Shown piece after piece: positions 15,101 through 64,000 of a stretch of 64,000 bases of DNA (position 1 is the first letter of the stretch; each line of letters begins with the position of its first letter). The translations under genes were made by a program, and so were the position numbers. Below the pieces are notes generated by a model. The model did not search any database. It was given only the letters and a program-made list of their open reading frames with translations, and had not been told where the DNA came from. Source of the DNA: an uncultured Myxococcales bacterium (GTDB taxonomy: Bacteria > Desulfobacterota > Binatia > UBA1149 > CAITLU01). The stretch covers positions 17,025 to 81,024 of the forward strand of contig CAYYZO010000004.1 of the NCBI GenBank assembly GCA_964476185.1. Direction: 5' to 3'.

Positions 15101-15115
15101 GCCGCCGGCGGACCG

Positions 15116-15772: not shown

Positions 15773-15788
15773 GACGGCGGCCAACGTC

Positions 15789-16766: not shown

Positions 16767-16870
16767 CGAAACCGATGGTGTTCAGAAACGCCGGGGGGCG
16801 GCAACCCGGTTTCGCGCCGGCGCCGCGCGAAACCGTCGCCGTCGGCGGCGGCTTCGCGCGGGCGAGTCGC

Positions 16871-17305
16871 TCACTGGATCGGGATCTTCTTCGCGCCGAC
16901 CTTCTCCGGCGCTTTCATCGTGACCTCGAGCACGCCGTCCTTGCAGCCGGCCCTGATGCTGTCGGTGTCCACGTCCCAGGGAAGCTGCACGGTGCGTTCG
17001 AACGCGCCGTACGAGACTTCGCGGTAGACACGGCCGCCCTTGTCTTCCTCGGTGCGGCTCTTGCGTTCTCCGCGGATCGTCAGGCGGTCGCCCTCGACCT
17101 GGATGTCGAGGTCGGCGGGGTCGATGCCCGGGACATCGACGCGGACGACGAGTTCGCCGTTGCGCAGGAACGACTCCAGCGGGGGAACCCAGCGGCCGGT
17201 GCTGACGCCCGGCAGCCAGTCGTTGCCGAAAAAGCGACCGATCAGGTCGTCGAACTCGCGATGCAGCGGCGAAAGGTCGGGAGTTCGGGTCGTCAAAGCT
17301 CTCAT
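16871..17305 (-). CDS. Hsp20/alpha-crystallin small heat-shock protein
   Basis: GGAGG RBS; VRVDVPGID, LTIRGER, EVSYGAFERTVQLP, DGVLEVTM. Confidence 0.93.
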   Translation of the reverse strand: MRALTTRTPDLSPLHREFDDLIGRFFGNDWLPGVSTGRWVPPLESFLRNGELVVRVDVPGIDPADLDIQVEGDRLTIRGERKSRTEEDKGGRVYREVSYGAFERTVQLPWDVDTDSIRAGCKDGVLEVTMKAPEKVGAKKIPIQ

Positions 17306-43506: not shown

Positions 43507-44616
43507 ATGGGACTCGCGATCTCTTCCTTCGCCCGATCGATCTTCTCGCCGGCCGCTGCCGCCCCGCAGCGGCGCGCGCCGAGCCGCCGCTGGGCCCGCG
43601 GCGCCGCCCGGCCCGAGATGCTGCGCCTCGTCGTCGCCGAGGTGATCGTCGAGTCGCCGAGCACGCGGACCTTCGTGTTCGAGGACCGCGACCTGCGCTA
43701 CCGCGCGGGACAGCACCTGACGGTCGTGGCCGGGATCGGAGGCCGCACGGTCCGCCGCTGCTACTCGTTCTCGAGCTCGCCGTCGGCGGGCTCGCGTCCG
43801 GCGATCACCGTGAAGAGGATCGATGGCGGGACGATGTCCGGCTGGCTGCACGACAACCTCCGCGCCGGCGACGAACTGCGCGCGATGCCGCCGGCCGGCG
43901 AGTTCTCGATCGAGCCGGACCCGTCGCGCTCGCGGCGCGTCGGGATGATCGCCGGAGGCGTGGGCATCACCCCGCTGCTCAGCATGGCGGAGACGCTGCT
44001 GCGCGAGGAACCCGGCACGCAGGTCACGATGCTGTACGGCAGCCGCTGCCGCGACGAAGTGATCTTCCACGACCGGCTTCTCGCGCTCTCGCGCGAGTTC
44101 GGCGGACGCCTGGTCCTCGAACTCGTCGTGGAACTGGGCGACACGTCGTGGGACGGCCTCGTCGGACGCGTCGACGGCGACGCCGTTTCGCGGGTGGCCG
44201 GGACGCACGAAGCGGACGATTGGTACGTCTGCGGACCGCAGCCGATGATGGACGGGGCCGTCGCGGCACTGGCGCAGGCTGGTGTCGCGCCCGAGCGCGT
44301 CCGCGTCGAGCGCTTCGAGTACGCCGTGCCGTCCTCGGCGGACATCCCGACCTCTCCGGCCGCGCTGGTCTTCCAGCACAGCGGGAAGAAGGTCATCGCC
44401 CGCGCGGGTTCGACGATCCTCGAAGCGGCCGAGCAGGCCGGCGTCGCGCTCCCGTCGAGTTGCCGCATGGGCGGCTGCGGCGCCTGCAAGGTGAAGGTGG
44501 AGGGCAAGGTCGTCGCGGCCGAGCCGAACTGCCTGAGCGAGCGCGAACGGTCGGAAGGCTGGGCGCTCGCGTGCTGTTCGTACGGCGACGGGCGCGTCGT
44601 CGTGCGCGATTTCTGA
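43507..44616 (+). CDS. FAD/NAD(P)H ferredoxin reductase with C-terminal 2Fe-2S domain (PaaE/KshB-type)
   Basis: RCYSFSS, IAGGVGITP, YVCGP, ERF, SSCRMGGCGAC...LACC. Confidence 0.93.
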   Translation: MGLAISSFARSIFSPAAAAPQRRAPSRRWARGAARPEMLRLVVAEVIVESPSTRTFVFEDRDLRYRAGQHLTVVAGIGGRTVRRCYSFSSSPSAGSRPAITVKRIDGGTMSGWLHDNLRAGDELRAMPPAGEFSIEPDPSRSRRVGMIAGGVGITPLLSMAETLLREEPGTQVTMLYGSRCRDEVIFHDRLLALSREFGGRLVLELVVELGDTSWDGLVGRVDGDAVSRVAGTHEADDWYVCGPQPMMDGAVAALAQAGVAPERVRVERFEYAVPSSADIPTSPAALVFQHSGKKVIARAGSTILEAAEQAGVALPSSCRMGGCGACKVKVEGKVVAAEPNCLSERERSEGWALACCSYGDGRVVVRDF

Positions 44617-44671
44617 CCGGCCCGCCGGCCGGACCCGACCGAACACCGAATCCTCCAGGGAGTACCCGACG

Positions 44672-45844
<1,173 letters not shown>

Positions 45845-49350: not shown

Positions 49351-49467
49351 GGTGTCCGCCGAGTCTAGCCGCACTCCCGCTCCCATGCCCACCCGCGGTG
49401 ACGCGGCGGGAGGGAAGGAGTTACGGTCAGGACGCAGGGAAGGGCGCCGGCGCGAGGCGCCGGGGCG

Positions 49468-50445
49468 TCATTTCGCCTTCCACTTGTAGTAGAGGGGCGG
49501 AATCGCCTGCAGGGGCCCGAGCGGGCTCATCTGCGCGTGACGCAGGTCGGACTCGATGCGGTCGCAGTGCCGCAGGACCGGGCGCAGGTCGTCGATGCGG
49601 GACGCGATGCGGCGCCAGTCGTCCCAGAGCGCCTCGTCGTCGAACCGGGCCTCGTCGTTCGCGAGCCGGAAGAGCCAGCGGAACGCGTCGCGGGCGAGGA
49701 CGTTCAGGTTCGGCGTGCGGTCGAGGTCCTGGATGTCGAACTTGCTGTGGCGGATGCCGGGCTTGAGGTACTGGGTGCGGTAGATCTCGATCTCCCGCCG
49801 GACGTTCTCGTCGACCGGGAGGCCGAGGCCGCGCGCCATGCGCTCGAGCTCGTGCGCCGGGTTCGCCATCACGTTGTCGTAGTCGACGAACACGCAGGTC
49901 TCGCCGCGCACGCGCTCGAAGTACGGGACGACGTTCGTCAGCCACTCGAGGTCGCTCTTCTCCTGCGTGCCGCGGTGCGGCTCCAGGCGCGCGCGGGAGC
50001 GCGCGACGCTGAGCGGGTTCCGCACGGCGAACACGTAGCGCGGCTCGACGCCGCAACGCTGGAACACGCGTTCGAAGAAGGGGAGGAAGCGGGAGGTGCG
50101 CGCGTACTTGTAGCCCCACAGCGGCGAGTTGCCGAAGCGGCGCCGGATCATCGCGACGCAGTCGTCCTCGATCTTCCTGATGACCGGAAGGTCGTACTCT
50201 TCCGGCTCGATGAGCCGGACGCTGTCGGCGCGGATCCCGAGCGTGCGCTTCAGGCGCCGGCTGATCCTCAGGAAATCGTTGTCCTCGAAGAACCCGGTGG
50301 GGTTCTTGCCGCTTCCGGGACGCAGGTTGTCGCCGAGGTCGATGCCGATCGCCTGCATCCCGCGCGTGATCGCACTGGTGCCGCTGCGTCCTACACCGAG
50401 GATGGTCACCATGACCCAGGGCTTCTTCGCGGCTGGTTCGCTCAT
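49468..50445 (-). CDS. Sulfotransferase family protein
   Basis: ILGVGRSGTSAI (5'-PSB), GFFED, WGYK, VRNPLSVARS (3'-PB). Confidence 0.85.
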   Translation of the reverse strand: MSEPAAKKPWVMVTILGVGRSGTSAITRGMQAIGIDLGDNLRPGSGKNPTGFFEDNDFLRISRRLKRTLGIRADSVRLIEPEEYDLPVIRKIEDDCVAMIRRRFGNSPLWGYKYARTSRFLPFFERVFQRCGVEPRYVFAVRNPLSVARSRARLEPHRGTQEKSDLEWLTNVVPYFERVRGETCVFVDYDNVMANPAHELERMARGLGLPVDENVRREIEIYRTQYLKPGIRHSKFDIQDLDRTPNLNVLARDAFRWLFRLANDEARFDDEALWDDWRRIASRIDDLRPVLRHCDRIESDLRHAQMSPLGPLQAIPPLYYKWKAK

Positions 50446-50459
50446 CGTGGTCGGCCTGC

Positions 50460-51551
50460 CTATTGGCGATGTTCGTGCCGGAGGTCAAACAGGGCGCGAA
50501 CGCGCGCGACGGTGCGCTCGAGGTCGTCGAGGGGCTCGCGATGCCGGGGCGCCGGATCGCCGAAGCGGTGCGCGAGCCCGCGCCGGCGCATCTCGGCGAA
50601 GTACGCGTCGAAATCGCGGGCCGGCTTGAACAGTCCGAGCTCGACGCCCTTGCTCCAGAGCCACGACGGTCGCGCGCGCCGCGCCGCGTGCCCGTTCTTC
50701 GCTCCTTTCCTCGGCCACTCGAACACGGCCGCGGGTTTCCCGGTCGCGCTCGCCTCGACGAGGATCGAAGCGCTGTCGATCGTCACGACGAAGTCGTCGG
50801 CGAGCGCGAGAAACCCCTTGTACGGGTTGTTCGCGGCGTCGTCGCGCTTCCATCGGTACACGACCGACGGCGCGTCGACGGCCGCGGCGAGCGCCTCGGC
50901 GGCCTCCGGCGGCGTGCGGGGGCTGGTGGAGACGAGCAGCGAGCCGCCGCGTTCCTTCGCCATGCGCGAGGCTTCCCGGCCGAGCCGCGCCGCCGTGTCG
51001 GGGTCGAGCTCGTACGCGGAACTGCTGCCGCCGACGAGGACCGCCGTCCACGGCCGCGGAAGGTGCTCCAGGCGCGGGCTCCAGGTCCTCGCCGCCGCTT
51101 CGAGGGCGGCTTCGTCGATGCGGTTCAGCACGCCGGTCACGTGCAGGACGTTGCCGCGCTCGGGAAGCCGGAACTGCGGCATCGTCACGACGAGGTCGAA
51201 GCGCTCGAGCGGGGCCTGCGCGTGCAGCAGGTGCACGAGGCGCGTGCGCCCGCCGGACCGTTTTCGGATCCACTGCGCGATCGGCGCCGAGCGGCGCGAC
51301 GCCGCGATCACGAGGTCGGGCCACGGCGGCTCGAGCGGCGACGAGCGCCGCCGGTCGAGCGAGATCGCCGAGGAGTCGAGCAGCAGGTTCGGCAGGTGGT
51401 TCAGCGCGTTGTGCCGGAGCTGCTTGATCTCGTACGGCCAGCCGAGCGCGTCCGCGAGGCTCTGCATCTGGCCGTTCCCGCCGACGCCCTTGCCGAACAG
51501 GACCCACACGCGCGGCGGCGGCGGGGACGAGGGGGCCGTCGCCGTGCCCAC
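50460..51551 (-). CDS. ELM1/GtrOC1-family putative glycosyltransferase
   Basis: PPWPDLVIAA, AVLVGG, LLVSTSPRTP, NPYKGFLALAD.FVVTIDSASI..EA.ATGKP. Confidence 0.85.
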   Translation of the reverse strand: MGTATAPSSPPPPRVWVLFGKGVGGNGQMQSLADALGWPYEIKQLRHNALNHLPNLLLDSSAISLDRRRSSPLEPPWPDLVIAASRRSAPIAQWIRKRSGGRTRLVHLLHAQAPLERFDLVVTMPQFRLPERGNVLHVTGVLNRIDEAALEAAARTWSPRLEHLPRPWTAVLVGGSSSAYELDPDTAARLGREASRMAKERGGSLLVSTSPRTPPEAAEALAAAVDAPSVVYRWKRDDAANNPYKGFLALADDFVVTIDSASILVEASATGKPAAVFEWPRKGAKNGHAARRARPSWLWSKGVELGLFKPARDFDAYFAEMRRRGLAHRFGDPAPRHREPLDDLERTVARVRALFDLRHEHRQ

Positions 51552-54092
51552 TCAGCCGCTCTTCGCGCGGCGCGGCTCTTCCGGGATGCGGCGGTCGTCC
51601 CCGATCCCGAGCAGCGCGCGCACCCGCTCGGCCACGACTTCGGCCTCGTTGAGCGGGGCGTGCGGCGCGAGGTCGAGCGTGCCGTCGAACATCCTCGCGT
51701 GGCCGCCGGCGACCAGGCCCTGGTGATAGGCCTCGAGGCTGCGGCTCGGGTGCACGATGCCGCGCTCGATCAGCCGCGCGCACAGGTATTCGCGGCCCTG
51801 CTGGGGCCGGAACGTGCCCTTGCCCTTGCGCGGGCGCGAGAACGCCACGCTCGTGACGAAGTCGACGAAGCGCTGGCCGAGCGTCGGCGCCTTCTTGCGC
51901 AGCGGGTAGATGTAAACGGGCTTCCCGGCCGCGCAGGCCTCGGCGAGCATCGACTCGCTCTCGCCGGTGACGACGAGAGCGTCGGCGCCGGCGATGTACG
52001 CGAGGAACGGGTTCTCCTTGCGGTCGGCGCTCCAGCGGTGCACCTCGCCGACCGGCTGGCCGCCGGCGCGAAGGCTCTGTTCCATCAACGTGATCGCGCT
52101 CGCCGGCGTGCGGCGGCTCGTGACGATGACCACGCTGCCGCCGTGCTTGCGGGCGAGCGCCGCCACGTCGTCGCCGAGACGGCGTGCGGTGGTGTCGTCG
52201 AGCTCGTACTGCACGCAGTCGCCGCCGACGAGCACGACGATGCGGGGCGAGGCCTTGCCGGTGAACAGGTCCGGGAACTTCGCGGCCGCCTCGGCCAGCC
52301 GCTGCGGCGTGACCTGGCAGAGCGGCGCGCTCAGCGCGATGCGGCGCTCGTGCGGCGGGTACTTCACGTAGGAACACGTCGCGACGAGGTCGAAGTTCGT
52401 CGCGACGTCGCCGCCCTTGCGCCCCATCGCGATGACCGACGTCCTTCCTTCGCTCCGGTCCGCGATCCAGCGCGCGACCGGGCCCGTGGCCCAGCCGGTC
52501 GAGATCACGAGGTCCGGCCACGGCGCCCGAAGCTCGCCCGCGCGCCGGCCGGAAGGATCGATCGCGAGCGGTCCGACCAGCCGGTCCGTGACCTTCGACC
52601 ACCACGGGAACCCGACGTCCTTGATCTCGTACGGCCAGCCGAGCGTGTCGGCGAGCCCGATCGACTGCGTCGTGTGGCCGGGCTTCGGGTCGGCCAGGAT
52701 CCAGACCTTCGGCGGGGCGTCGTCGAGGCGCTTGCCGCCCTCGCGCCAGTCCACGACCTCGGCGCCGAGCACGGTGCGCCGCCGCACGCCGAGGCGCCAG
52801 CGAACGTCGGGCTGGTTGCGCGAGGCCGCCTCCATCTGCTTGCGCCACCACGCGAAGCCGCGCGGCTGCACGCTGATGCTGCTGCCGTCGGCGAGCCGCA
52901 CGGTGCGCGGCACGTCGTCGACGGCGACGAACGCCGCCTTGCGCGCCCGGTACATCAGCTGGTCGAGGACCCACGGAATGTCCTCGTTCGACAGCAACTC
53001 GAGCCCGGACGTCGAAACGACCGCGTCGAACGGGCCGATCGGCACGTCCATGCCGGTCGCGCCGGTCGCGGTCGGGTCGAAGGCCGTCAGCGTGGCGCCG
53101 GGGTACTTGCCGACGCGGCTTTCGATGGCTTCGTTGCGGGCGTCGGCGAGCGTGAACTCGAGGATGCTGCGCGCGCCGGCCAGCGCGAGCAGTTCGCCGA
53201 GGCCGGACAGCGGCGCGGGCGGCGGCGGGGTCGAGAGCGGGGCCGTGCGGCCGTCCTCGCCGCGCATGCCGCGGATGCGCCGCACGAACCCGGTGTACAG
53301 GGTGTCCTCGGTCAGGAAGTCGTAGGCGCAGTACTCGCGCTGGTCGGCCTCCTTTTCCATGTCGTACCAGATGTGCGAGACCGGTCCCGCCATGTAGACG
53401 AACACCTCGGGGAACGGGTGCCACGGCTGCTCGTGGATCGTCGTGTAGTGGAGGCACTTGGAGTAGCCGTCCACGTAGTCGAAGTCGCGCGCGTGCCAGC
53501 AGGCCTCGAGCTTGCCCCACTCGTGCCTGGACATCTTCTCGATCTGCTTGCGGGGAGTGTGGCTGACGACCTCGTAGGTCCAGATGTCCTTCATCTTGTC
53601 GCAGTCGATGAGCATGACCGCGGTGTCGTCGGGCGAGATCGCGAGGAAGCCCTTGCCGCCCATGTCGGCGTCGAAGAGCTCGGCCGGATCCGACAGGAAG
53701 ATCTGGTCGACGTCGTTGTAGATCGCGCGGCCCGTGCCGGCCCAGTTCGCGATCGCGAAGCGGTAGTTCGTGAACCCGGTCAGCCACCAGCGGCGATCGT
53801 AGCCGCGGACGTCCTTCATCAGGTGGATCTCGTAGACCCTCGACGGGTCGCGGAACTTGTCCACGGAATAGATGAAGAGCCGCTCGGCGCGGTACTGGCC
53901 GGCTTCGGTGCCGAGGTAGATGCGGACCGGCGGCTTGGTCGAGGGCGTGGCGCCGCCGCGGGCGGGAAGGACGACCTTCTGGGGAAGGTCCCGGACGCCG
54001 GCCGTGGGCAACCGTGCCGGATTCGGGAAGATCCTGTCCTTGACGCGTCTGGTGGTGAGAAACGGCATGAAAGCCTCCGCGTGCGCTGACAT
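51552..54092 (-). CDS. Multidomain protein: GT8-like domain, methyltransferase-like domain and ELM1/GtrOC1 domain
   Basis: N-terminal GFTNYRF, IYNDVDQIF, HYTT..QPW; middle FDAVVST..LE...WVL...WW; C-terminal WILADPKPGHTTQSIGLA, TSRRTP, NPFLAYIAGAD..VVTGESESM. Confidence 0.78.
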   Translation of the reverse strand: MSAHAEAFMPFLTTRRVKDRIFPNPARLPTAGVRDLPQKVVLPARGGATPSTKPPVRIYLGTEAGQYRAERLFIYSVDKFRDPSRVYEIHLMKDVRGYDRRWWLTGFTNYRFAIANWAGTGRAIYNDVDQIFLSDPAELFDADMGGKGFLAISPDDTAVMLIDCDKMKDIWTYEVVSHTPRKQIEKMSRHEWGKLEACWHARDFDYVDGYSKCLHYTTIHEQPWHPFPEVFVYMAGPVSHIWYDMEKEADQREYCAYDFLTEDTLYTGFVRRIRGMRGEDGRTAPLSTPPPPAPLSGLGELLALAGARSILEFTLADARNEAIESRVGKYPGATLTAFDPTATGATGMDVPIGPFDAVVSTSGLELLSNEDIPWVLDQLMYRARKAAFVAVDDVPRTVRLADGSSISVQPRGFAWWRKQMEAASRNQPDVRWRLGVRRRTVLGAEVVDWREGGKRLDDAPPKVWILADPKPGHTTQSIGLADTLGWPYEIKDVGFPWWSKVTDRLVGPLAIDPSGRRAGELRAPWPDLVISTGWATGPVARWIADRSEGRTSVIAMGRKGGDVATNFDLVATCSYVKYPPHERRIALSAPLCQVTPQRLAEAAAKFPDLFTGKASPRIVVLVGGDCVQYELDDTTARRLGDDVAALARKHGGSVVIVTSRRTPASAITLMEQSLRAGGQPVGEVHRWSADRKENPFLAYIAGADALVVTGESESMLAEACAAGKPVYIYPLRKKAPTLGQRFVDFVTSVAFSRPRKGKGTFRPQQGREYLCARLIERGIVHPSRSLEAYHQGLVAGGHARMFDGTLDLAPHAPLNEAEVVAERVRALLGIGDDRRIPEEPRRAKSG

Positions 54093-54229
54093 GCGCGAGA
54101 CGGGTTGGGGGGTCCTTCTCCCGAACGACGAAGATACCCTTGCTGGTCCTGTCGCTCAACGAAACGGGAGGCTTCGGGGGCCTTCCGCTTATCCGTGCTC
54201 TTCGCGACGGTAATGCTGGGAGGTCGGGT

Positions 54230-56014
54230 TCAGGCGAGGTCGGTCGTGCCGTCGCCCGCAGCGCCGGCGACGTCGGCGGATGCAGCGGGATCGCCGGCCG
54301 CGTCGGGATGGTCGGCGAACCGCTCGTTTCCTTCGAGCAGGCGCACCCGCCCGTCGCTCAGGCGATAGACGCGGTCGGCCACCTGGAGAAGCCCCGGCTG
54401 ATGGGAGATCGCGAGGATCGTCGTGCGGCCGCGCAGCGAGCGGACGGTCTCGTAGATGCCGGCCTCGCTGGCCGGGTCCAGGGCAGCCGTCGCTTCGTCG
54501 AGGATCAGCAGGCTCGGGCGGTGCACCAGCGCACGTGCGATCGCGATGCGCTGCCGCTGGCCGCCGGACAAGCGCGCGCCGCGCTCGCCGAGCGGTGTGT
54601 CGAGGCCCTGTTCGAGCTCGCGCACGAACCCGGTGGCGCCGGCCGCTTCGAGGGCTTCCTCCACGTCCGTGCGCGTGAGGTCCGGGTCCCCGAGCGTCAC
54701 GTTCGTGAGGAGATCCTCGTGCAGCAGCAGCATCTCCTGCGGCACGTAGCCGACGCGACGGCGCCAGCCAGCGATGTCGATCTCCGACATCGGGACGTCG
54801 TCGAGGAACACCTGGCCGCGCCTCGGGTGCACCAGGCCGAGCGCGAGGTCCGCGATGGTCGTCTTGCCGGCGCCCGACGGGCCGATGATGGCCGTGACTT
54901 CGCCGGCCGGCAGGAAGAGGTCGGCTCCACGGAGGATCGGCCGCTCGTCGTAGGAGAAGTCGACGTCGCGGATCGAGATGCCGCGCTCGAAGACGGGATC
55001 GCGCGTCCCGCTCACCGGCTCGTTCTCGCGCGCCGACTCGTCGATGGTCTTCTGCAGCGACCAGAACGCGCTCTCGCAGGCCGCCATCGCCTGGTACTGC
55101 TTCTGCGATTTCTGCAGGCTGAACAGCGCGCGCGCGAACACGAGCGACAGCATGATGACGTTGTCGACGGCGAGCTCCCAGAACGTCGTCGCGGCGTAGA
55201 GGCCGCCGGTCAGCGACATCACGAGCAGCGGCTCCTGCAGCGCCCGGACCGCTTCCTTGCTCAGCACCTGCCTCTGCAGCGCGCGGTTGAGGCTCTCGGT
55301 CTCGTGCTCGAGCAGCGGCGCGACGAGCGGTTCGCGTCCCATGGCCTTGAGCGGCTTGACGGCATAGAGCACGTCGGTCATGCGCGCGATCAGCGTGCGC
55401 ATGAGGTCGGTCTGCTTGACGCCGGCGCGCTTGGTCCGCCGGACGAGGCCCGAGAGCGCGCCGACCGTGCCCAGCCCGACGAAGGATGCCGCGAGCGTCG
55501 TCTGCCACGAGACCGCCGCGGCGATGCCGACGTAGAGGATCGTCTGGATCAGCTGCGAGACCAGCGTCGTGCCGTACAGGTACGCTTCCGAAGCGCGCGA
55601 CGCCTCGGTGGCGAACGCGTTGGCGAGCATGCCGACCGGCTGGCGCACGTAGTAGAGCCAGCGGGCCGACAGCAGCGCGCGCAGCAGCGCCAGCCGCAGA
55701 TCCGTCGCCACGTGCGCGACGGTGTAGCCGACCTGCCGCTGGGCGAGCAGCATCAGCGTCGCCTTGAGGATGCTGCCGAGCACGATCATCACGAGCAGCA
55801 CCCCGAGCGTGGGCTCGAGGCCGACGCTCGCGAGCCCCGAGCGCAGCGACTGCTCGAGGCCGGAGGGCTCGCCTTTGGAGCCGGTCACCATGCCGAGCAG
55901 AGGGAGAAGGCTGGACAGTCCGATCCCCTCGGCCGCCGCGGCCAGGGTCAGACAGATCAGCATGATGAAGGTGCGCGACGGATAGCGTCGGGCGAGGACG
56001 AGGAGGAGACGCAT
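54230..56014 (-). CDS. ABC exporter, fused permease-ATPase (MsbA/PglK-like)
   Basis: Six-TM N-terminus; GPSGAGKTT, LSGGQRQRIAIARAL, ILDEAT. Confidence 0.93.
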   Translation of the reverse strand: MRLLLVLARRYPSRTFIMLICLTLAAAAEGIGLSSLLPLLGMVTGSKGEPSGLEQSLRSGLASVGLEPTLGVLLVMIVLGSILKATLMLLAQRQVGYTVAHVATDLRLALLRALLSARWLYYVRQPVGMLANAFATEASRASEAYLYGTTLVSQLIQTILYVGIAAAVSWQTTLAASFVGLGTVGALSGLVRRTKRAGVKQTDLMRTLIARMTDVLYAVKPLKAMGREPLVAPLLEHETESLNRALQRQVLSKEAVRALQEPLLVMSLTGGLYAATTFWELAVDNVIMLSLVFARALFSLQKSQKQYQAMAACESAFWSLQKTIDESARENEPVSGTRDPVFERGISIRDVDFSYDERPILRGADLFLPAGEVTAIIGPSGAGKTTIADLALGLVHPRRGQVFLDDVPMSEIDIAGWRRRVGYVPQEMLLLHEDLLTNVTLGDPDLTRTDVEEALEAAGATGFVRELEQGLDTPLGERGARLSGGQRQRIAIARALVHRPSLLILDEATAALDPASEAGIYETVRSLRGRTTILAISHQPGLLQVADRVYRLSDGRVRLLEGNERFADHPDAAGDPAASADVAGAAGDGTTDLA

Positions 56015-56171
56015 CGCGGGCCGCGGCCTGCGTACCGCTTGGGGGGCGGGCGGTCAAGGAGGCTCGCAGCCGTCGTCCCGGCGGCGCGCGGCCTTCGTCC
56101 GCCTCCGGCAGCGGCCGACCGGCCGCACAGTGACGGAAGCGGGTCGCCACGCAGGCTGCTAGGATGCCCCG

Positions 56172-56966
56172 ATGCTCAAGGCGCTCGTGCTTGCAGGTCG
56201 TCGCAGCAGCGGCGACGCGGTGGCGGACAGTTCCGGATTGCGCCACCGGGCGCTGCTGCCGATTGCCGGCGTGCCGATGCTCGAGCGGGTCGTCGACGCG
56301 ATCGAGAAGAGCGGCGTCGCTTCGTCGGTGACGGTCAGCAGCGACGACCCGCAGATCGTCCACGCTACGCCGCGGCTCGCCTCCCTGGCCTCCGAGGGCC
56401 GCGGCTTCCTGTTCTTCCATCGCTCGGCGACGTCGCCGGCCGCGAGCGTCGCGGATTTCCTCGCCGGCGTCGGCGACGGGGAGCCGGTGTTCGCGACCAC
56501 GGCCGACCATCCGCTGCTGACGCCCGAGATCGTCCGGTGGTTCGTCGAGCGCGCGTCCGCGTCGCCGGCCGATGTCGTCGTCGGCATGGTGCCCGCCACC
56601 GTCTACCGGCGCCGCTTCCCCGACCAGCCTCGCACGTTCCTGCGCCTGCGCGGCGAGCAGTACTCGGGAGCGAACCTGTTCCTGCTGCGGACCGCCGCCG
56701 CGATCGCCGTCCCGCGCTTCTGGATCCGCGCGGAGTCCCACCGCAAGACGCCGTGGAAGCTCGCGCGCGTCTTCGGGATCTCGAACCTCTTGTCGTTCCT
56801 GCTGCGCCGCTTCGACCTCGAGGCCGCGCTTCGGCGCGCGTCGGACGTGATCGGCGCGCGCGTCGAAGCCCTCGAACTGCCGTTCGCCGAAGCCGCGCTC
56901 GACGTCGACAAGGAAGCGGACCGCCTTGCCGTCGAGGCCGTGTTCGCCGAGCGATCCGGCGCCTGA
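56172..56966 (+). CDS. MobA-like nucleotidyltransferase (NTP_transf_3; CpgD-like family)
   Basis: ALVLAG, ALLPIAGVPML, TTADHPLL, RTFL...YSGANLF, RK.PWK, AALDVDK..D. Confidence 0.82.
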   Translation: MLKALVLAGRRSSGDAVADSSGLRHRALLPIAGVPMLERVVDAIEKSGVASSVTVSSDDPQIVHATPRLASLASEGRGFLFFHRSATSPAASVADFLAGVGDGEPVFATTADHPLLTPEIVRWFVERASASPADVVVGMVPATVYRRRFPDQPRTFLRLRGEQYSGANLFLLRTAAAIAVPRFWIRAESHRKTPWKLARVFGISNLLSFLLRRFDLEAALRRASDVIGARVEALELPFAEAALDVDKEADRLAVEAVFAERSGA

Positions 56967-57141
56967 CCCCGGGGCTTTCGCCGTCCGACCCGCGAATCGC
57001 GCGGCTTGGGCGGAGCGCGGGGCCGTGTTAACACGCCTCCATGCCGGACGATCCCACGGATGCGGCGGACGCTCACCGCGGAGCGCCGGCTGGCGCGCGC
57101 CGGCGCCCGAATCCGGCGGATCGGGGACGGGTGCGGTCGTG

Positions 57142-57906
57142 ATGAAGTACGTCTTCGACGCCGGGGGACGCGCGGAACTCGCACGTCTCGCACGGTCGAA
57201 CACGCTGGTCGCGTTCGATTTCGACGGCACGCTCGCGCCGATCGTCGCGGACCGCGACCTCGCGCAGATGCGGCCCGAGACGCGCGGGCTGCTCGCCCGC
57301 GTGAATGCGCAGTATCCCTGTGCGGTCATCTCCGGGCGCGGACTCGACGACGTGGCGTCGCGCCTCGAGGCCACGGGTGTCCGTCACGTCGTCGGCAACC
57401 ACGGCATGGAGCCCGGTTCGAGGCTCGGCGAGTTCGAGCGTGCGGCCGAGCTCGGTTTCGAGGAAGCCCGCCGACGGCTGGCCGGTCACGAGGGACTGGA
57501 CTTCGAGCACAAGCGCTACTCGTTCGCCGTCCACTACCGGCGGTCGCGCGACCGCGATGCGGCGCGGCGGGCGATCGACGAGACGATCGCGTCGCTGTCC
57601 GTCGCGACGCGCGTGGTTCCCGGGCACCTCGTCGTGAACGTCATGCCGCACGGCGCGCCGGACAAGGGCGATGCGCTGGACCACCTTCGAGTCGAGCTGG
57701 CCTGCGAGCTCGCGCTGTTCGTCGGCGACGACATCACCGACGAGGACGTCTTCCGGCACGTCGGCGACGGGCGCGTCGTCGGCGTCCGCGTGGGCAGGAG
57801 CGACGAGTCGTCGGCGACCTGGTTCGTTCGCGACCAGGACGAAGTCGACGAATTGCTGCGGGTCCTCGTCGCGTTGCGGGAACCCCGGGTTCCGGAAGGC
57901 TCCTGA
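57142..57906 (+). CDS. otsB: Trehalose-6-phosphate phosphatase-like HAD IIB phosphatase
   Basis: FDFDGTLAPIV, ISGR, GNHG.E, EHK.YS..VHYR, DKG, GDDITDE. Confidence 0.82.
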   Translation: MKYVFDAGGRAELARLARSNTLVAFDFDGTLAPIVADRDLAQMRPETRGLLARVNAQYPCAVISGRGLDDVASRLEATGVRHVVGNHGMEPGSRLGEFERAAELGFEEARRRLAGHEGLDFEHKRYSFAVHYRRSRDRDAARRAIDETIASLSVATRVVPGHLVVNVMPHGAPDKGDALDHLRVELACELALFVGDDITDEDVFRHVGDGRVVGVRVGRSDESSATWFVRDQDEVDELLRVLVALREPRVPEGS

Positions 57907-58076: not shown

Positions 58077-59099
58077 GTGCGCATCGGAGTCCTCAGCAAC
58101 CTGCGCGCCGGCGGTAGCGGGGTTCGTGCGGCCAAGGTCGTCGAGCATCTCGCGCGCTATCCCGAGATCGTCCACGTCGAGACCAGCGAGGAGAACGGCG
58201 CGCCGGGTGCGGTGCGCCAGCTCGCCGACGCCGGAGTCGACGTCCTCGTCGTCAACGGCGGCGACGGCACGCTGCAGCGCACGCTGACCGAGGTGATGTG
58301 CGCGACTTCCCCGTTCCGCCGCCCGGGGGACACGCGGGAACTGCCGGGCGAATCCGGCCTTCCGATGATCGTGCCGCTGCGCAGCGGCCGGACGAACATG
58401 ACGGCCTACGACATCGGCACCCCGCGTGATGCGCGCGTCGCCGTCGACCGCCTTGTCGCGCGCGCCAGGAGCGGACGCCTCCAGGAGTCGGTCGTTCGTC
58501 GCGCCGCGCTTCGCATGAAGCTCGAGCCCGACGGAGTCGACCACTGGGGGACTTTCTTCGGCGTCGGCGTGATCTACCGCGGCACGCTGCTCACGCACCG
58601 TATCTTCCCGAGGGGCAGGGCGCAGGGCGTGTTCGGCAGCACGGTCGTCACGGCCGGCCTGATCGCACGCGCGCTGACGGGCCGCGCGCCGGCCGCCCGC
58701 GACGGGGCGGAGGACCCGCTGACCATCGACCCGATGACCGTCCGGCTCGACGGGGAACTGCTCGCGGCCGGCGAGTTCCAGCTGCTGATGGCGACCACGC
58801 TGCAGCGCCTGTTCGCGGGAATCCGGCCGTTCTGGGGCAGGGGGCCGGGAGGGATCCGCTTCACCGCCCTCGGCCCGGGCTGCCTGCGCCACCCGAAGCA
58901 GATCGCACGGGTGCTGCGCGGGCTCGTGCCCAAGGGCAGCGGCGAAGACGACGCCCTCTTCGAGAGCCGCAACGTCGAGAAGGTCGAGTTGTCGCTCGAT
59001 TGCGGGATCTCGCTCGACGGCGAGATGTTCGTCCCGCAGAAGGGCCGCCAGGCGACGCTGCTGGCCGACCACCGCGTTCGCTTCGTGACGACGCGCTGA
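58077..59099 (+). CDS. Diacylglycerol/ceramide kinase-family lipid kinase (CpgB-like)
   Basis: GVLSN, VNGGDGTLQ, PLRSGRTNMTAYDIG, LDGE motifs. Confidence 0.85.
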   Translation: MRIGVLSNLRAGGSGVRAAKVVEHLARYPEIVHVETSEENGAPGAVRQLADAGVDVLVVNGGDGTLQRTLTEVMCATSPFRRPGDTRELPGESGLPMIVPLRSGRTNMTAYDIGTPRDARVAVDRLVARARSGRLQESVVRRAALRMKLEPDGVDHWGTFFGVGVIYRGTLLTHRIFPRGRAQGVFGSTVVTAGLIARALTGRAPAARDGAEDPLTIDPMTVRLDGELLAAGEFQLLMATTLQRLFAGIRPFWGRGPGGIRFTALGPGCLRHPKQIARVLRGLVPKGSGEDDALFESRNVEKVELSLDCGISLDGEMFVPQKGRQATLLADHRVRFVTTR

Positions 59100-59113: not shown

Positions 59114-60073
59114 GTGAACCGCGATCCGCGCACCCAGCTCGCCGCGCTGTTCGAGCGCGAGCACCGTGCCGACGTGCCGCCCGAGGCGCTCGCCCTGGTC
59201 GCCGAGATCCGACGCCGGCACGAGGGCGCGGTCGCGGCGGTGCTGTTCTACGGGTCGTGCCTGCGCCGCTCGTACGTCGCCGGCGGAGTGCTCGACTTCT
59301 ACGCGATCGTCGACTCGTATCGCGGGGCCTACCGTTCCCGCCTGCTGGCGCTGTCGAACTCGCTGTTGCCGCCGAACGTCTACTACGTCGAGCTGCCGTT
59401 CGAGGGCGAGACGCTGCGGATGAAGTACAACGTGATCTCGCGCGAGGACTTCGCCGCGGCCTGCCGCCCCGAGAGCCTGCACCCGATCATCTGGGCGCGA
59501 TTCTGCCAGCCTTCGGCCGTGCCGTACGCGCGCGACGACGAGGTCCGCTCTGCCCTCGCGGCCGACTGCGCCGAGGCCGCGGTGACGATGGTCAGCCGCA
59601 TGCTCGCCCTCCACCCGGAGTCGGCGACCGTCGAGGATCTCTGGCAGGCGGGGTTCGGGACGACGTACACGACCGAGATGCGCGTCGAGACGCCGGAGAC
59701 GATCCGCTCGGTCTACGAGGCCGCGCCCGAGCGCTACTCCGCGGTGTCGGCGCTCGCCGTCGAAGTGCTCGTGCGGCGCGGACTCGTGCAGGGTCGAATC
59801 GACGGGCCCCAGGTCCAGGTCCGGATGGCGGAGCCGGCGAGGCGCTCGATCGTCTCGTCGTGGAAGCGCCGGCTCCCGGTGGCCAAGGGGCTGTACGTGG
59901 TGCGGCTCGTCAAGTCCGCGCTCACGTTCGGCGACTGGCTGCCGTACGCGCTCTGGAAGCTGCAGCGTCACAGCGGCGTCCGGATCGAGGTCACCGACCG
60001 GCAGCGACGCCATCCGCTGATCTTCGGCTGGCCCGTCATCCTGCAGTTGATCCGGGGCAAGACGCTGCGATGA
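59114..60073 (+). CDS. Tam41/Mmp37-like phosphatidate cytidylyltransferase homolog (CpgC-like)
   Basis: AVLFYGSC...LDFYAIVD, PPNVYY, KYNVIS, WARFCQP parallel the Tam41 YGSG / DFIFAV / KYGVVS / GRLQKP motifs. Confidence 0.72.
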   Translation: MNRDPRTQLAALFEREHRADVPPEALALVAEIRRRHEGAVAAVLFYGSCLRRSYVAGGVLDFYAIVDSYRGAYRSRLLALSNSLLPPNVYYVELPFEGETLRMKYNVISREDFAAACRPESLHPIIWARFCQPSAVPYARDDEVRSALAADCAEAAVTMVSRMLALHPESATVEDLWQAGFGTTYTTEMRVETPETIRSVYEAAPERYSAVSALAVEVLVRRGLVQGRIDGPQVQVRMAEPARRSIVSSWKRRLPVAKGLYVVRLVKSALTFGDWLPYALWKLQRHSGVRIEVTDRQRRHPLIFGWPVILQLIRGKTLR

Positions 60074-60224: not shown

Positions 60225-61307
60225 ATGGTCACTCCTGAAGGAGGGACGGTCGCCGCCGAGGGGGCGGGGGCCGAGGTGGATCAGAGTCCTGCCGCACTGC
60301 GGCGACGCTACACCTCGTTGTTCCGCCCCAAGCCCTGGCTCTACTACGCCGACATGCTGGCGGCGGCCGTGCTCGGCTGGTCGGCCTTTGCGCTGGCCGT
60401 GCACACGGAGCGCTTCACGGCTGCCTGGGGCGCGGCCGTCTTCGTGGCCGTCTTCGCCCTGTACCGGGCCATCCTGTTCATCCACGAGATCTCGCACCTG
60501 CAGCGGCGCGCCGTGCCGGGGTTCGAGGTCGTCTGGTCGCTGGTGGTCGGCTTCCCGCTGCTGGTCCCGAGCCTGATGTACAAGGGGTCGCACGGCGAGC
60601 ACCATCGCCGCCAGATCTTCGGGACGGAGAAGGATCCCGAGTACGCGCCGATCGGCCAGTGGAGCAAGGTCCGCGTCGCCGCCTCGATCCTGCCGCTGCT
60701 CGTCGTCCCGTTCCTGCTCGTGCTGCGGTGGGCCATCCTCGGGCCGCTCTCCTACCTGTTCCCGCCGCTTCGCCGCTTCGTCGTCGGCTACATGTCGACG
60801 CTCGTGATCAACCCGACCTACCAGCGGCGCATGCCCGAGGGGCGCATGGCCCGGCGCTGGCTGGTGGAGGAAGCCTGCACGGCGCTGGTGTGCTGGACGA
60901 TCGTGCTCGCGATGGCGACCGGCGCGATCGGGACGTCGTGGCTGGTCGAGTGGTTCCTGATCTCGAGCTTCATCCTCGCGTTCAACCACGTCCGGACGCT
61001 GGTCGCTCACCGCTACCACAACGACGGGACGCCGATGGACCTGCTCGAGCAGTACCGCGACTCGGTGAACCTTTCGGGCGGCCACTGGGTCGATGCGGTT
61101 CTGGCGCCCGTGGGGCTGCGCTATCACGCGCTGCACCACCTGCTGCCGACGGTGCCGTACCACAGCCTCGGCGCGATCCACCGCCGCATGCTGAGCGAAC
61201 TCCCGCCGCAGACGCCGTACCACGTCGCTGAGCACCGCACGCTGCTGCACGCGGTGCGCTCCCTGTTCGGCGACCGTGCGTTCTCGCACTTCCCGTCGCG
61301 CCGCTGA
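60225..61307 (+). CDS. Membrane fatty acid/sphingolipid desaturase (or hydroxylase)
   Basis: Three His boxes: HEISH, HGEHH, HALHH; TM helices. Confidence 0.9.
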   Translation: MVTPEGGTVAAEGAGAEVDQSPAALRRRYTSLFRPKPWLYYADMLAAAVLGWSAFALAVHTERFTAAWGAAVFVAVFALYRAILFIHEISHLQRRAVPGFEVVWSLVVGFPLLVPSLMYKGSHGEHHRRQIFGTEKDPEYAPIGQWSKVRVAASILPLLVVPFLLVLRWAILGPLSYLFPPLRRFVVGYMSTLVINPTYQRRMPEGRMARRWLVEEACTALVCWTIVLAMATGAIGTSWLVEWFLISSFILAFNHVRTLVAHRYHNDGTPMDLLEQYRDSVNLSGGHWVDAVLAPVGLRYHALHHLLPTVPYHSLGAIHRRMLSELPPQTPYHVAEHRTLLHAVRSLFGDRAFSHFPSRR

Positions 61308-61340: not shown

Positions 61341-62414
61341 TCAGCTTCGCAGCGTCAGCATTCCGCCGACGAGGACGAACACGGCGTTCGCCGCCCAGGC
61401 CGCGACGATCGGCGGAAGCGTGCCGGCGTGTCCGGCCGAGACGGTCAGCGCCTGCATCAACCAGTACAGGAAGCAGACGGCCATGCCGGTGCCGATGTGC
61501 TGCGCGGTCCCGGCGCGGCGCGACCCGCGCAGCGCGAGCGGCAGCCCGAGCAGCACCGTGATGATGCCGGACAGCGGCAGGGCGAACTTGAACTGCAGGT
61601 CCGTCTGCAGCCCGGCCGGGTCGAATCCCTTGGCCTGCAGCATGCGGATGCGCTGGGACAGCTGCCGGATGCTGAACTCGTCGGAGCGCGGCGCCTTCTT
61701 GCGGAACTCGGCCGGCGTCCCGCCGAGGTCCACCTCGAGGTCGCCGAGCGGCCCGTACAGGAGGCCGCCGTTCTCGTCGAAGTTGCGCACGGTGCCCCCT
61801 TCGTACTCCCAGCGGTCGCCCTCCCATCTGGCGACGGGGATCTCGACGAGACGGGTGAGCTGGAAGCGCTCGTCGATCCCGTGCAGCGTGATGCCCTCGA
61901 GGACGTTGTGGGTCGCGTCGAAGTAGTCGATGTTGAGGAACCCTTCGGGAACCTGGACCCACAGCGCGGTCGCGTCGAGCATGCCGCGGCTCGCGAGTCC
62001 CTTGATGTCGATGTCCTTGATGGCCCGGGCGCGCGCCGCCGTCGGCGGGACGACGACTTCGTTGAACAGCATCGCGACGGCGCTGATCGCGAGGCTCGAG
62101 ACGAGCAGCGGCCGGGCGATGCGCGCGACGCTGACGCCGCACGCGTGCAGCGCGACGACCTCGTTCGTCCGCACCAGCGAGCCGATCCCGAGCAGCACGG
62201 CGAGCAGCGACGCGGCCGGGTAGACCTCGACGAGCCACTTCGGCGTCTTCAGCGCGAAATAGGTGGCCACGAGCCGGGGGCTCGAGTCGTACGACGCGAG
62301 GTCGCCGATGCGGCCGAAGAACTCGACGACGAGAAGCAGGCCGATCGCGCCCGCGAGGCACAGCACGAACGTGCGCAGGTAGAGCCCGACGAGCTGGCGC
62401 GCGAGCAGGCTCAT
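61341..62414 (-). CDS. lptG: LptG-family permease
   Basis: YFALKTP, LVRTNEVVALHACGVS, FNEVVVP, periplasmic beta domain, LPPIVAAW; ATGA overlap with lptF. Confidence 0.9.
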   Translation of the reverse strand: MSLLARQLVGLYLRTFVLCLAGAIGLLLVVEFFGRIGDLASYDSSPRLVATYFALKTPKWLVEVYPAASLLAVLLGIGSLVRTNEVVALHACGVSVARIARPLLVSSLAISAVAMLFNEVVVPPTAARARAIKDIDIKGLASRGMLDATALWVQVPEGFLNIDYFDATHNVLEGITLHGIDERFQLTRLVEIPVARWEGDRWEYEGGTVRNFDENGGLLYGPLGDLEVDLGGTPAEFRKKAPRSDEFSIRQLSQRIRMLQAKGFDPAGLQTDLQFKFALPLSGIITVLLGLPLALRGSRRAGTAQHIGTGMAVCFLYWLMQALTVSAGHAGTLPPIVAAWAANAVFVLVGGMLTLRS

Positions 62415-63553
62415 GCGCCGCGCCCCCTCGCGAACGCGAACAGCGGCGGGCGTTCCTCGACGGCGCGTCGGAACAGCACGACGGCGAGCAGCGCGAGCAG
62501 GACGTCCGGCAGCCACATCGCGACGGGAACCGGCAGCAGGCGCTCGCGCGCGATCGTCACGGCGCCCGTCAGCATCAGGTAGTAGACGAGCACCACGAGG
62601 GTGCTGAGCAGCATCCCGCGCGACTTCACTCCGCGGCGGCCGACCGCGCCGAGCGGGACCCCGACGAAGGGCAGCAGCAGGGCCGCCGCGGGCAGCACGA
62701 GCTTGCGGTGCAGTTCGATCGTCTCCTCGATCGCCGGCTCGCCGCGAGCGAGAGCCTCGCGCCGCGCCTCGAGGAGCCGCGCGAGCGACATCGCGGACGG
62801 GCCGCCGCTGGCCATCAGGTCCACGCCTGTCTCGTCGGCCATGTCGAGGTTCAGCTCGAGGGAATCGAAATCGGTCTTGTCGTGGTACTTCCCCGAGGCG
62901 TGGTAGGTGAGCAGGCTGCCGTCGTGGAGCTTCAGGTAGGCCTTGCGCGCGTCCCCGTTCGACTCGACGAGGCCGTCGCTCGCGAAGATGGTCTTGCGCC
63001 CGTACTTCTCGCGCTCCTCGGCGAGCATCACGTTGCGCATCCTGCCGGTGTCCGCGTCGAGCTCGTCCACGAACAGGATGACGCCGCCCATCCACGTGTT
63101 GAAGACGCCGGCCCGCAACGACGCGGTCAAGCGGGTGCGGGCCATGTCGTACGTGGTCTCCTCGATGCCGCGGTTCGCCCACGGCCTGGCCCAGACCCCG
63201 AGCACGACGCTGACCGTCGCGACGACGACGCTGAACGTGACCAGCGGGCGAGAGAGCTGGCGCAGGTTGATGCCGGCCGCGCGGATCGCGAGCAACTCGC
63301 CCTCGGAGCCCAGGCGCGCGAACACGACGACGACGGCCAGCAGCGCGGCCATCGGAAGGGCGATCTCCAGGTACGACGGAACGATGAAGACGGCGAGTGC
63401 GCCGACCAGCCGCGCCGGGACGCCACGCGCGAACGCGAGGTCCACGAACTCGACCATGCGAAGCACGAACAGGATCGAGACCGCCAGTCCGACCGCGGCC
63501 ACGAAGGCCTGCGCGACCTCGCGCAGCAGGTAGCGCTGGAGCGTGCGTCCCAC
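62411..63553 (-). CDS. lptF: LptF-family permease
   Basis: LQRYLLREV, RLGSEGELLAIRAAGI, RPWAN, GVFN, ELHRK, MWLPD. Confidence 0.9.
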   Translation of the reverse strand: MGRTLQRYLLREVAQAFVAAVGLAVSILFVLRMVEFVDLAFARGVPARLVGALAVFIVPSYLEIALPMAALLAVVVVFARLGSEGELLAIRAAGINLRQLSRPLVTFSVVVATVSVVLGVWARPWANRGIEETTYDMARTRLTASLRAGVFNTWMGGVILFVDELDADTGRMRNVMLAEEREKYGRKTIFASDGLVESNGDARKAYLKLHDGSLLTYHASGKYHDKTDFDSLELNLDMADETGVDLMASGGPSAMSLARLLEARREALARGEPAIEETIELHRKLVLPAAALLLPFVGVPLGAVGRRGVKSRGMLLSTLVVLVYYLMLTGAVTIARERLLPVPVAMWLPDVLLALLAVVLFRRAVEERPPLFAFARGRGA

Positions 63554-63563
63554 CGCCCGCTCC

Positions 63564-64000
63564 CTACTGGTCCACGGGGATCTTTTCGTACACGGCGAGC
63601 CCGTCGTTGGTCCGGCCGAAGAGCTCGATGTAGCGCACCGTCGGGGTCAGGAACCCTTCTTCCGCGAAGACGAACACCTTGTCGAGGTAGGCCTGCTTGC
63701 CGTCGATCGTGAGGAAGGTCTCGGCCTTGCACTTGCCGTCGACCGGGGCGGTGCGGACGACGATCTGGCGGTCCGGCAGCGCGCGCAGGCGCACCTCGAT
63801 GCGCCCGTCGCTTTCGATCTGCTGTTTCTGGAAGCCGTACGCCACCTGCTGGAAGAACGAGAGCGGCCGGGTCTCGACGGGGTCCTCCTCGCGCCGGAGC
63901 CAGTAGTTGTAGATCGGCTCGGGCGGGACCGGGCGGCACTGCTCGTCGACGCGCACGCCGTAGTGGACCTGGTTGCGGTTCTTGTTGCGGTCGATGTGGA
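63564..64000 (-). CDS. DUF4833-like protein (C-terminal part; runs off the right edge)
   Basis: HIDRNKNRNQVHYGV...EPIYNYW...QQVAYG...YIELFGR. Confidence 0.6.
   Translation of the reverse strand, partial: HIDRNKNRNQVHYGVRVDEQCRPVPPEPIYNYWLRREEDPVETRPLSFFQQVAYGFQKQQIESDGRIEVRLRALPDRQIVVRTAPVDGKCKAETFLTIDGKQAYLDKVFVFAEEGFLTPTVRYIELFGRTNDGLAVYEKIPVDQ

Follow-up and report, generated by a model that had tools for sequence, protein, structure and literature searches.

An ABC exporter, transferase and sulfotransferase gene arm linked to cpg-like genes, with a probable role in the synthesis of an anionic sphingolipid

Gene content and layout of the locus

The subject of this work is an arm of four minus-strand genes in a stretch of 64,000 nucleotides (64 kb, hereafter the window; GC content about 71%) from an uncultured Myxococcales bacterium placed by GTDB in the Binatia (assembly GCA_964476185.1, contig CAYYZO010000004.1). 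An initial annotation, made from the sequence alone, had described an ABC exporter, a fusion of GT8, methyltransferase and ELM1 domains, an abutting ELM1 gene and a sulfotransferase as co-oriented and as sharing a divergent region of roughly 157 nt with an arm of cpg-like lipid genes. All four genes are indeed found on the minus strand at the coordinates given there, on the evidence of GC content at third codon positions (0.93-0.95 in each of the four, from frame-specific values and a codon-usage gene call) and of Pfam matches. Starting from the divergent region, they encode a half-size ATP-binding cassette (ABC) exporter of 594 aa with one transmembrane and one nucleotide-binding domain (TMD and NBD; 54230..56014; ABC_membrane 8e-14, ABC_tran 2e-30), a three-domain transferase of 838 aa, referred to below as the fusion (51552..54068, within an open reading frame extending to 54092), a stand-alone ELM1/GtrOC1 paralogue of 363 aa, here called ELM1b (50460..51551; PF06258 3e-65, 220.6 bits), and a sulfotransferase of 325 aa of the type using 3'-phosphoadenosine 5'-phosphosulfate (PAPS; 49468..50445; PF13469). 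Transmembrane segments are absent from the fusion, ELM1b and the sulfotransferase, and the ABC protein has five hydrophobic segments.

The gap separating the two arms measures 157 nt (56015..56171), as had been claimed. It contains no match to the sigma-70 consensus, and a scan for promoters and terminators gave nothing above shuffled expectation. The same divergent junction, with an NTP_transf_3 gene on one side and the ABC gene on the other, also occurs in the related loci L001, L002, L084, L085 and L086. The gene order is kept in relatives at 95%, 81%, 65% and 47% protein identity, and the four-gene arrangement is conserved well beyond chance. DNA of the window was found in bioreactor and sand metagenomes.

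Domain architecture of the fusion enzyme

The start of the fusion is probably the ATG at 54068 (MPFLTTR), because all homologues begin there. Exact-sequence look-ups of the window fusion and of the sulfotransferase returned no match; the failure for the fusion is explained by the first ATG of the open reading frame not being the real start. An AlphaFold2 model of the 838-aa protein, computed from an alignment of 73 homologues, reached a pLDDT of 87 and a pTM of 0.82, and allowed three domains to be delimited.

The N-terminal domain (about aa 25-270; 53259..53996, minus strand) is predicted to be a GT8-like glycosyltransferase of GT-A fold. Foldseek places it closest to GlyE (5gvv), 3tzt (TM-score on the target 0.60), LgtC (1g9r/1ss9) and the catalytic domain of UGGT. 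Two motifs are invariant in 73 sequences of the fusion family, one of them containing the DxD signature (NDVDQ; N118, D119, D121 and Q122) and the other of the form H-x-T-x-x-H-x-Q-P-W (H207, T209, H212, Q214, P215 and W216). The modelled domain combines the GT-A fold, the DxD and the C-terminal metal-binding His motif by which GT8 enzymes are recognised. Membership judged by Pfam is another matter, as the window fusion scores 13 bits with Glyco_transf_8 (PF01501) against a gathering score of 24.3; sub-threshold hits to this model occur in 15 of 16 aligned family members (best relative 4.7e-4). When the GT8-like domain alone was used in a phmmer search of 1.84 billion proteins, 511 representatives were recovered, most of them 720-850 aa long, and the domain forms a narrow family tied to the three-domain architecture.

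The middle domain (about aa 290-445; 52734..53201, minus strand) resembles methyltransferases in its alignment and in the strand and helix pattern of the model. Weak hits to Methyltransf_25, Methyltransf_12 and Methyltransf_23 were obtained for 7, 5 and 4 of the 16 members, respectively. Motif II is retained (FDAVVC), while the alignment shows that the glycine-rich motif I (GxGxG) for S-adenosylmethionine (SAM) is missing, with unconserved columns of the form LEF(T/S)L(A/G) in its place. The domain is probably non-catalytic, since it lacks the Gly-rich SAM loop.

The C-terminal part (about aa 450-820; 51609..52721, minus strand) is an ELM1/GtrOC1 domain, with a PF06258 score of 186.2 bits (1e-54) that, like the one for ELM1b, lies far above the gathering cut-off of 27 bits. 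All 16 aligned relatives of the fusion match this model, and the motifs GHTTQS, TSRRT, NPY and TGESESM are fully or almost fully conserved (at least 90% of sequences). The modelled half has the two Rossmann domains expected of a GT-B fold and matches generic GT-B enzymes in Foldseek (WecB, MshA, OleD and TreT). Searched as a profile against PDB sequences, the fusion family gave chance hits to ribosomal protein uS2 only, and these were discarded. The description of the gene as a GT8/MTase/ELM1 fusion is thus borne out at the level of folds, and it is not carried at the level of Pfam membership, where the GT8 match is sub-threshold and the methyltransferase hits are weak.

ELM1b, the sulfotransferase and the ABC exporter

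ELM1b is 33% identical to the ELM1 domain of the fusion, and its motifs have diverged. With the GTG at 51551 as start codon, the gene directly abuts the fusion (0-nt gap), as initially proposed; if the start is placed as in the relative with 95% identity, where ELM1b was called 14 codons shorter, the two genes are separated by about 42 nt. ELM1b and the sulfotransferase occur together in 16 loci.

The Pfam match of the sulfotransferase to Sulfotransfer_3 is marginal (27.8 against a cut-off of 27). Nevertheless, the identification made in the initial annotation holds. The 5'-phosphosulfate-binding motif (5'-PSB, GxGRSGTS; G17, G19, S21, G22, T23 and S24) and the 3'-phosphate-binding motif (3'-PB, RNPLSVAxSR; R142, P144, S146, A148, S150 and R151) are invariant in 50 sequences. 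Moreover, the top 48 Foldseek matches of an AlphaFold2 model of the family (pLDDT 87) are all sulfotransferases, including TPST, CurM-ST, SULTs and Stf1 (best E 1.6e-5).

The exporter likewise stands as claimed, since Walker A (GPSGAGKTT), signature (LSGGQRQR) and Walker B (LLILDEAT) motifs can be read in its translation in addition to its two Pfam domains. Its best NCBIfam models are HepA, CydD, MsbA and PglK, and the protein falls below every equivalog cut-off (HepA 267.7 vs 725, MsbA 221.4 vs 602, PglK 175.4 vs 1000). It is likely the flippase for the finished lipid, and its orthologue adjoins the fusion gene in 34 of 82 loci.

Distribution and linkage to sphingolipid genes

Homologues of the fusion number 1278 in the database, and among the named ones those from Candidatus Binatia metagenome-assembled genomes (MAGs) are the closest. 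A scan with one genome per species identified relatives in 483 species genomes, among them Binatia, Nitrospirales, Alpha- and Gammaproteobacteria and Myxococcota-labelled bins, and supplied 80 loci for comparison. Every fusion locus found derives from a MAG. Near the fusion in 83 loci (L001-L083), tblastn with the window proteins detected the nucleotidyltransferase in 50, the ABC exporter in 35, the lipid kinase in 26, its partner protein in 21, ELM1b in 20 and the sulfotransferase in 22.

The initial annotation had proposed synteny with cpg-like genes as a test of its reading, and the outcome is positive. Full flanks, meaning at least 8 kb to either side of the three-domain gene, were available for 50 loci, and in 45 of these a sphingolipid-backbone, cpg-like or NTP_transf_3 marker lies within 10 kb; taken singly, these markers occur in 26, 25 and 40 loci, respectively. 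The five marker-free full-flank loci, as well as L088, consist of a compact module only, and no O-antigen or capsule genes were found in them. No orthologue was seen in an O-antigen or capsule locus without cpg-like genes, which is the situation named beforehand as contradicting the link.

Several loci show the linkage to sphingolipid genes in detail. For instance, a run of genes in Nitrospira encodes NTP_transf_3, a GNAT-like 383-aa protein, FA_hydroxylase, a fatty acyl-AMP ligase (FAAL), an epimerase-family (CerR-like) reductase, serine palmitoyltransferase (Spt) and, immediately after it, the fusion, followed by TIGR04396, GFO, NeuB-cupin and CTP_transf_3. The segment from FAAL through the CerR-like gene and Spt to the fusion is co-directional with small gaps, and the Spt passes its NCBIfam equivalog cut-off (627 vs 500). 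The divergent two-arm layout of the window is also seen in L084 and L085, with Spt included in the plus arm; the best PDB match of the L084 Spt is the Sphingobacterium enzyme (3a2b/8guh, 2e-130). In addition, the plus arms of these two Binatia-like relatives contain, next to Spt, a gene for a 2-oxoacid_dh-like acyltransferase (L084 4177-5112, L085 4031-4954), which may be an alternative N-acyltransferase, i.e. an analogue of ceramide synthase.

A further example is L087, a gammaproteobacterial MAG locus reached from a distant sulfotransferase homologue. Here AMP-binding, epimerase, PP-binding, Aminotran_1_2, ABC, fusion, ELM1b, 2OG and sulfotransferase genes form one co-directional run, of which the first four are in the same order as aasR-cerR-acpR-spt of Caulobacter. 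The run continues in the same direction (11126-16985) with Sulfotransfer_1, GT2, GT4, GT4 and Wzy_C genes, which may point to a lipid with a far larger glycan.

Three accessory modules recur near the fusion, namely ELM1b/sulfotransferase (23 loci), CDP-OH_P_transf/Metallophos (18 loci) and NeuB(-cupin)/GFO/TIGR04396/CTP_transf_3 (31 loci), the second being a CpgA-like phosphotransferase module and the third a CMP-sugar module. They are nearly mutually exclusive in L001-L083 (pairwise overlaps of 1, 2 and 0), and because of this near exclusion they suggest interchangeable anionic decorations. Each module would add negative charge, in the form of sulfate, a phospho-acid or an ulosonic acid.

The plus-strand arm and adjoining genes

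On the other side of the divergent region, the plus-strand arm begins with a MobA-like nucleotidyltransferase of the Caulobacter CC_1153 type (56172..56966; Pfam NTP_transf_3). No other gene accompanies the fusion gene as constantly, and the nearest solved structures of the nucleotidyltransferase are TTHA0179 (4e-22) and then KdsB (about 5e-6). An assignment as the CpgD orthologue was considered and rejected in view of this MobA/KdsB-like character. The next gene encodes a HAD-IIB phosphatase resembling trehalose-phosphatases (57139..57906; TIGR00685 111.7 bits vs a cut-off of 68). It is also present in L086, the relative with 95% identity, and gave no tblastn match (E<=1e-6, at least 50% of the query) in the 83 loci L001-L083; as far as sequence comparison goes, the gene appears specific to the lineage of the window. 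Most related loci instead possess a PGAM-like His_Phos_1 gene and a 2OG-Fe(II) oxygenase gene after the fusion gene, His_Phos_1 being found in 24 loci.

A DAGK_cat lipid kinase (58077..59099; PF00781 5e-9) and a 319-aa protein with a Pol-beta-type nucleotidyltransferase (NTase) motif (59114..60073) follow in the positions of CpgB and CpgC, respectively. The two genes are paired in most of the kinase-bearing loci. The kinase has no informative relative in the PDB. The 319-aa protein matches no Pfam or NCBIfam family and shows a weak match to an NTase-domain PDB chain; some of its homologues are labelled 'predicted nucleotidyltransferase' by JGI. The last gene of the arm encodes a membrane enzyme of the FA_desaturase family (60225..61307; PF00487 1e-28), probably a desaturase or hydroxylase of lipid chains, which occupies the same position in L001, L002 and L086.

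Beyond the plus arm, on the minus strand, lie genes for an LptG-like (61341..62414) and an LptF-like permease (62411..63553), both matching PF03739 (247 and 248 bits for the pair). In 41 of 82 loci, from different phyla, genes of the LptF/LptG family occur no more than 10 kb from the fusion, though not always in the same order. Upstream of lptF a DUF4833 gene (63564..64000, minus strand; PF16117 1e-22) is cut by the end of the window, and it is found at the same position in L001, L005, L007 and L086.

The PAPS-supply genes (cysDNC) and lipid A genes that the initial annotation had suggested looking for do not occur in the 64-kb window, which also contains no spt, cerS, cerR, acpR, aasR or lpx genes and gave no tblastn hit for CpgA (CDP-OH_P_transf) or for the CC_1158-type phosphoesterase. 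Among related loci, CDP-OH_P_transf is found in 18 and the CC_1158-type phosphoesterase in 14.

Comparison with known systems

The closest known counterpart is the phosphosphingolipid region of Caulobacter crescentus (CC_1152-CC_1168), which makes ceramide phosphoglycerates (CPG/CPG2) and comprises cpgA-D, LptC2/F2/G2 and the flippase CC_1166 (PMC11324152, PMC12275187). LptC2/F2/G2 and the flippase are thought to carry phosphosphingolipids outward. The window resembles this region in pairing a DAGK_cat kinase with a putative NTase-type protein, in its CC_1153-type nucleotidyltransferase, and in having LptF/LptG genes alongside together with a dedicated, presumed flippase gene. Among the relatives, the Binatia locus L068 has the order NTase-motif protein, DAGK_cat, CDP-OH_P_transf and Metallophos, which is that of CC_1161 to CC_1158 (PMC11324152), and other relatives add aasR-cerR-acpR-spt. 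However, the window is without cpgA, CC_1158, cpgD-type, spt, cerS and cerR genes, its likely flippase is an ABC exporter instead of the Wzx-like protein of Caulobacter, and its source organism belongs to another phylum. The fusion, ELM1b and sulfotransferase genes are not among the 17 genes described in PMC11324152. We regard the cluster of the window as a previously undescribed version of the phosphosphingolipid cluster type known from Caulobacter.

The single proteins also resemble known families to different degrees. Both ELM1 domains of the window, with their strong Pfam scores and modelled GT-B fold, are related to GtrOC1 of Acinetobacter baumannii. GtrOC1, however, is a single-domain protein of a lipooligosaccharide (LOS) locus with an activity that is predicted only, whereas one window copy is fused to two further domains and stands in a sphingolipid and cpg-like context. 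Similarly, the N-terminal domain of the fusion shares the GT-A fold, the DxD and the C-terminal His/Q-P-W motif with GT8 enzymes of the LgtC, GlyE and glycogenin type, which are its best structural matches, yet it differs from them in its score under the Pfam threshold, its small family of about 500 representatives and its nearly constant three-domain architecture. The ABC protein has the TMD-NBD half-transporter organisation, the intact ATPase motifs and the adjoining biosynthetic genes of MsbA, PglK and HepA, but fails every equivalog cut-off.

OtsA/OtsB, MpgS/MpgP and GpgS/GpgP are pairs of glycosyl-phosphate synthases and phosphatases that make soluble compatible solutes. Two of them, GpgS/GpgP and MpgS/MpgP, work on phosphoglycerate, from which CPG lipids are also built. 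A retaining GT-A or GT-B transferase combined with a HAD-IIB phosphatase in the window, or with His_Phos_1 in most related loci, may recall these pairs, as an analogy and not as homology.

In its PAPS fold, its 5'-PSB and 3'-PB motifs and its place within a lipid or glycan pathway, the sulfotransferase is comparable to the sulfatide enzyme CST, mycobacterial Stf0 (sulfolipid-1) and rhizobial NodH. It differs in having no close sequence relative among these enzymes, and the TM-scores of its best fold matches, TPST and CurM-ST, are about 0.4-0.5. To our knowledge, no sulfated sphingolipid has been described in bacteria; bacterial sulfonolipids contain a C-S bond, for which a sulfotransferase is not needed.

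Proposed pathway and alternative explanations

The gene content, the folds, the catalytic motifs and the cross-phylum linkage to sphingolipid and cpg-like genes are direct observations. On balance they make it probable that the minus-strand arm serves head-group elaboration and export in a two-armed cluster making an anionic complex sphingolipid related to the ceramide phosphoglycerates of Caulobacter. The initial annotation had read the arm as building, sulfating and flipping a glycan head group, possibly on the same (sphingo)lipid, and the linkage supports this. It had left the product as either a sulfated glyco(sphingo)lipid or an LOS-like molecule, and of these the sphingolipid is the better supported and the LOS-like molecule the weaker choice.

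We infer the substrates and donors, the order of the steps, the acceptor of the sulfate and the lipid anchor in the source genome. In the proposed pathway, the DAGK_cat kinase in the CpgB position would phosphorylate the lipid, and the NTase-motif protein together with the MobA-like nucleotidyltransferase would activate or attach a small phospho-acid. The HAD-IIB phosphatase would remove a phosphate, while the desaturase-like enzyme would alter the lipid chain. The three-domain enzyme, a soluble protein, is predicted to add two residues at the cytoplasmic face, one by its retaining, metal-dependent GT8-like domain and one by its ELM1 GT-B domain. The stand-alone ELM1 paralogue could then add a further residue, which the PAPS sulfotransferase would O-sulfate. 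Finally, the finished lipid would be flipped across the inner membrane by the ABC exporter, and the adjoining LptF/LptG-type permeases may hand it on towards the outer membrane.

A bolder version, which we put forward as a tentative possibility, is that the cluster makes a bacterial counterpart of sulfatide, i.e. a sulfated glyco-(phospho)sphingolipid assembled by the three-domain enzyme, flipped by the ABC protein and handed over to LptF/LptG. Sulfate, a second phosphoglycerate and ulosonic acid would then be interchangeable across Binatia, Proteobacteria and Nitrospira as means of obtaining an anionic outer-leaflet lipid similar to lipopolysaccharide (LPS).

Several points weigh against the sphingolipid reading. 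Since spt, cerS, cerR, CDP-OH_P_transf and PAPS-supply genes are all missing from the window, a different lipid could serve as the anchor in this genome. The literature holds no ELM1-family enzyme with demonstrated activity, and the PDB holds no sequence relative of the family. The CpgC-like assignment of the 319-aa protein is drawn from gene position and a short motif only, and a test of its likeness to Tam41 and CpgC was negative, both with Pfam (0 of 41 members) and in a profile search of the PDB. One sulfotransferase homologue (L089, 13186-16624) has no fusion gene nearby and is located within a few kb of an mlaFEDCA operon. An expression search found the gene in no RNA runs. Furthermore, the locus counts overstate the number of independent observations because the loci are phylogenetically clustered. 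Lastly, a fusion seen in one relative and a gene of the Caulobacter cluster make it conceivable that the ELM1 domains transfer phospho-acids instead of sugars.

This last point leads to the alternative that survives best, which we nevertheless consider unlikely. It retains the overall role of the arm and has the ELM1 GT-B domains act like TagF, transferring a phospho-acid (e.g. phosphoglycerate) from a CDP-activated donor and so replacing CpgA in clusters without CDP-OH_P_transf. In the relative in question, P0107 (1087 aa), the three-domain enzyme carries a fused N-terminal cytidylyltransferase domain of the CpgD/IMPCT/LicC type, which connects it with a CDP-activated donor and would be compatible with TagF-like phosphotransfer by the ELM1 domain. 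The uncharacterised TagF-like GT-B gene CC_1167 of the Caulobacter cluster points the same way, as do the constancy of the nucleotidyltransferase as a neighbour, the near exclusion between the ELM1b and CDP-OH_P_transf modules, and the PGAM-like His_Phos_1 gene after the fusion. However, Foldseek returned generic GT-B enzymes only (epimerases, GT4, GT1 and GT20), with TagF not in the top 50, the nucleotidyltransferase of the window is MobA/KdsB-like and not CpgD-like, and a sugar hydroxyl is the more natural need of a sulfotransferase.

Still less probable is that the arm modifies lipid A or its core in the manner of LOS outer-core loci, with extension by ELM1/GtrOC1, sulfation, MsbA-like flipping and export by LptFG. 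Such a role would accord with the ELM1-family GtrOC1 of Acinetobacter outer-core loci (PMC4172580, PMC10327509), with an ABC protein that is MsbA/PglK-like at the family level, with the adjacent lptF and lptG, and with the GT2, GT4 and Wzy_C genes of L087 and a Lip_A_acyltrans gene in L084. Against it stands the linkage to spt, cerR-like, cerS-like and cpg-like genes in loci whose annotated neighbours (Pfam-scanned or pre-called) include no lpx, waa or kdt; in addition, the ABC protein is far under the MsbA equivalog cut-off, and the function of GtrOC1 is itself a prediction.

Equally improbable is a product anchored on a glycerolipid or polyprenol, either a glycolipid or a small exopolysaccharide, that is unconnected with sphingolipids in this genome, with DAGK_cat acting as a diacylglycerol or polyprenol kinase: the absence of spt from the window, the phosphorylation of diacylglycerol by other DAGK_cat enzymes, the best ABC model being HepA, a heterocyst envelope exporter, and the existence of compact modules without lipid genes all fit this, but the linked backbone genes, where present, are sphingolipid genes in several phyla, including relatives of the same layout, and the window cluster has no polyprenol-phosphate glycosyltransferase genes, Wzy_C being found in L087 only.

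Significance

Bacterial sphingolipids are known from few lineages. If the sphingolipid reading is true, Nitrospira (nitrite oxidisers), Binatia and many uncultured Proteobacteria should contain complex anionic sphingolipids, and sulfated sphingolipids should exist in bacteria. It would also give the first functional context for the ELM1/GtrOC1 family and for the three-domain family of about 500 representatives. The route of bacterial sphingolipids to the outer membrane is an open question (PMC11324152), and the cluster would provide cross-phylum comparative support for Lpt-type machinery moving them. Should cultured Nitrospira strains possess the fusion gene, the prediction would be directly open to lipidomics.

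Other genes of the window

On the same strand and 75 nt downstream of the minus-strand arm, a gene encodes an 833-aa fusion of a VTT/DedA-type membrane domain and a pyridine-nucleotide-disulfide oxidoreductase (46891-49392). We rejected it as a part of the conserved system, as it follows the arm in the closest relatives only (3 of 82 loci).

Further away, a ferredoxin-reductase-type gene (FAD_binding_6/NAD_binding_1/Fer2) and an AurF/R2-like di-iron oxygenase gene (43507-45844), with a MerR regulator upstream (42685-43389), form a separate small oxygenase unit. A GT87 gene (27323-28594) adjoins one for an AMP-binding enzyme. Two large proteins, probably secreted, are encoded at 7242-9650 and 11880-13826, one being Ice_binding-like with DUF4215 and one of the Beta_helix/NosD type.

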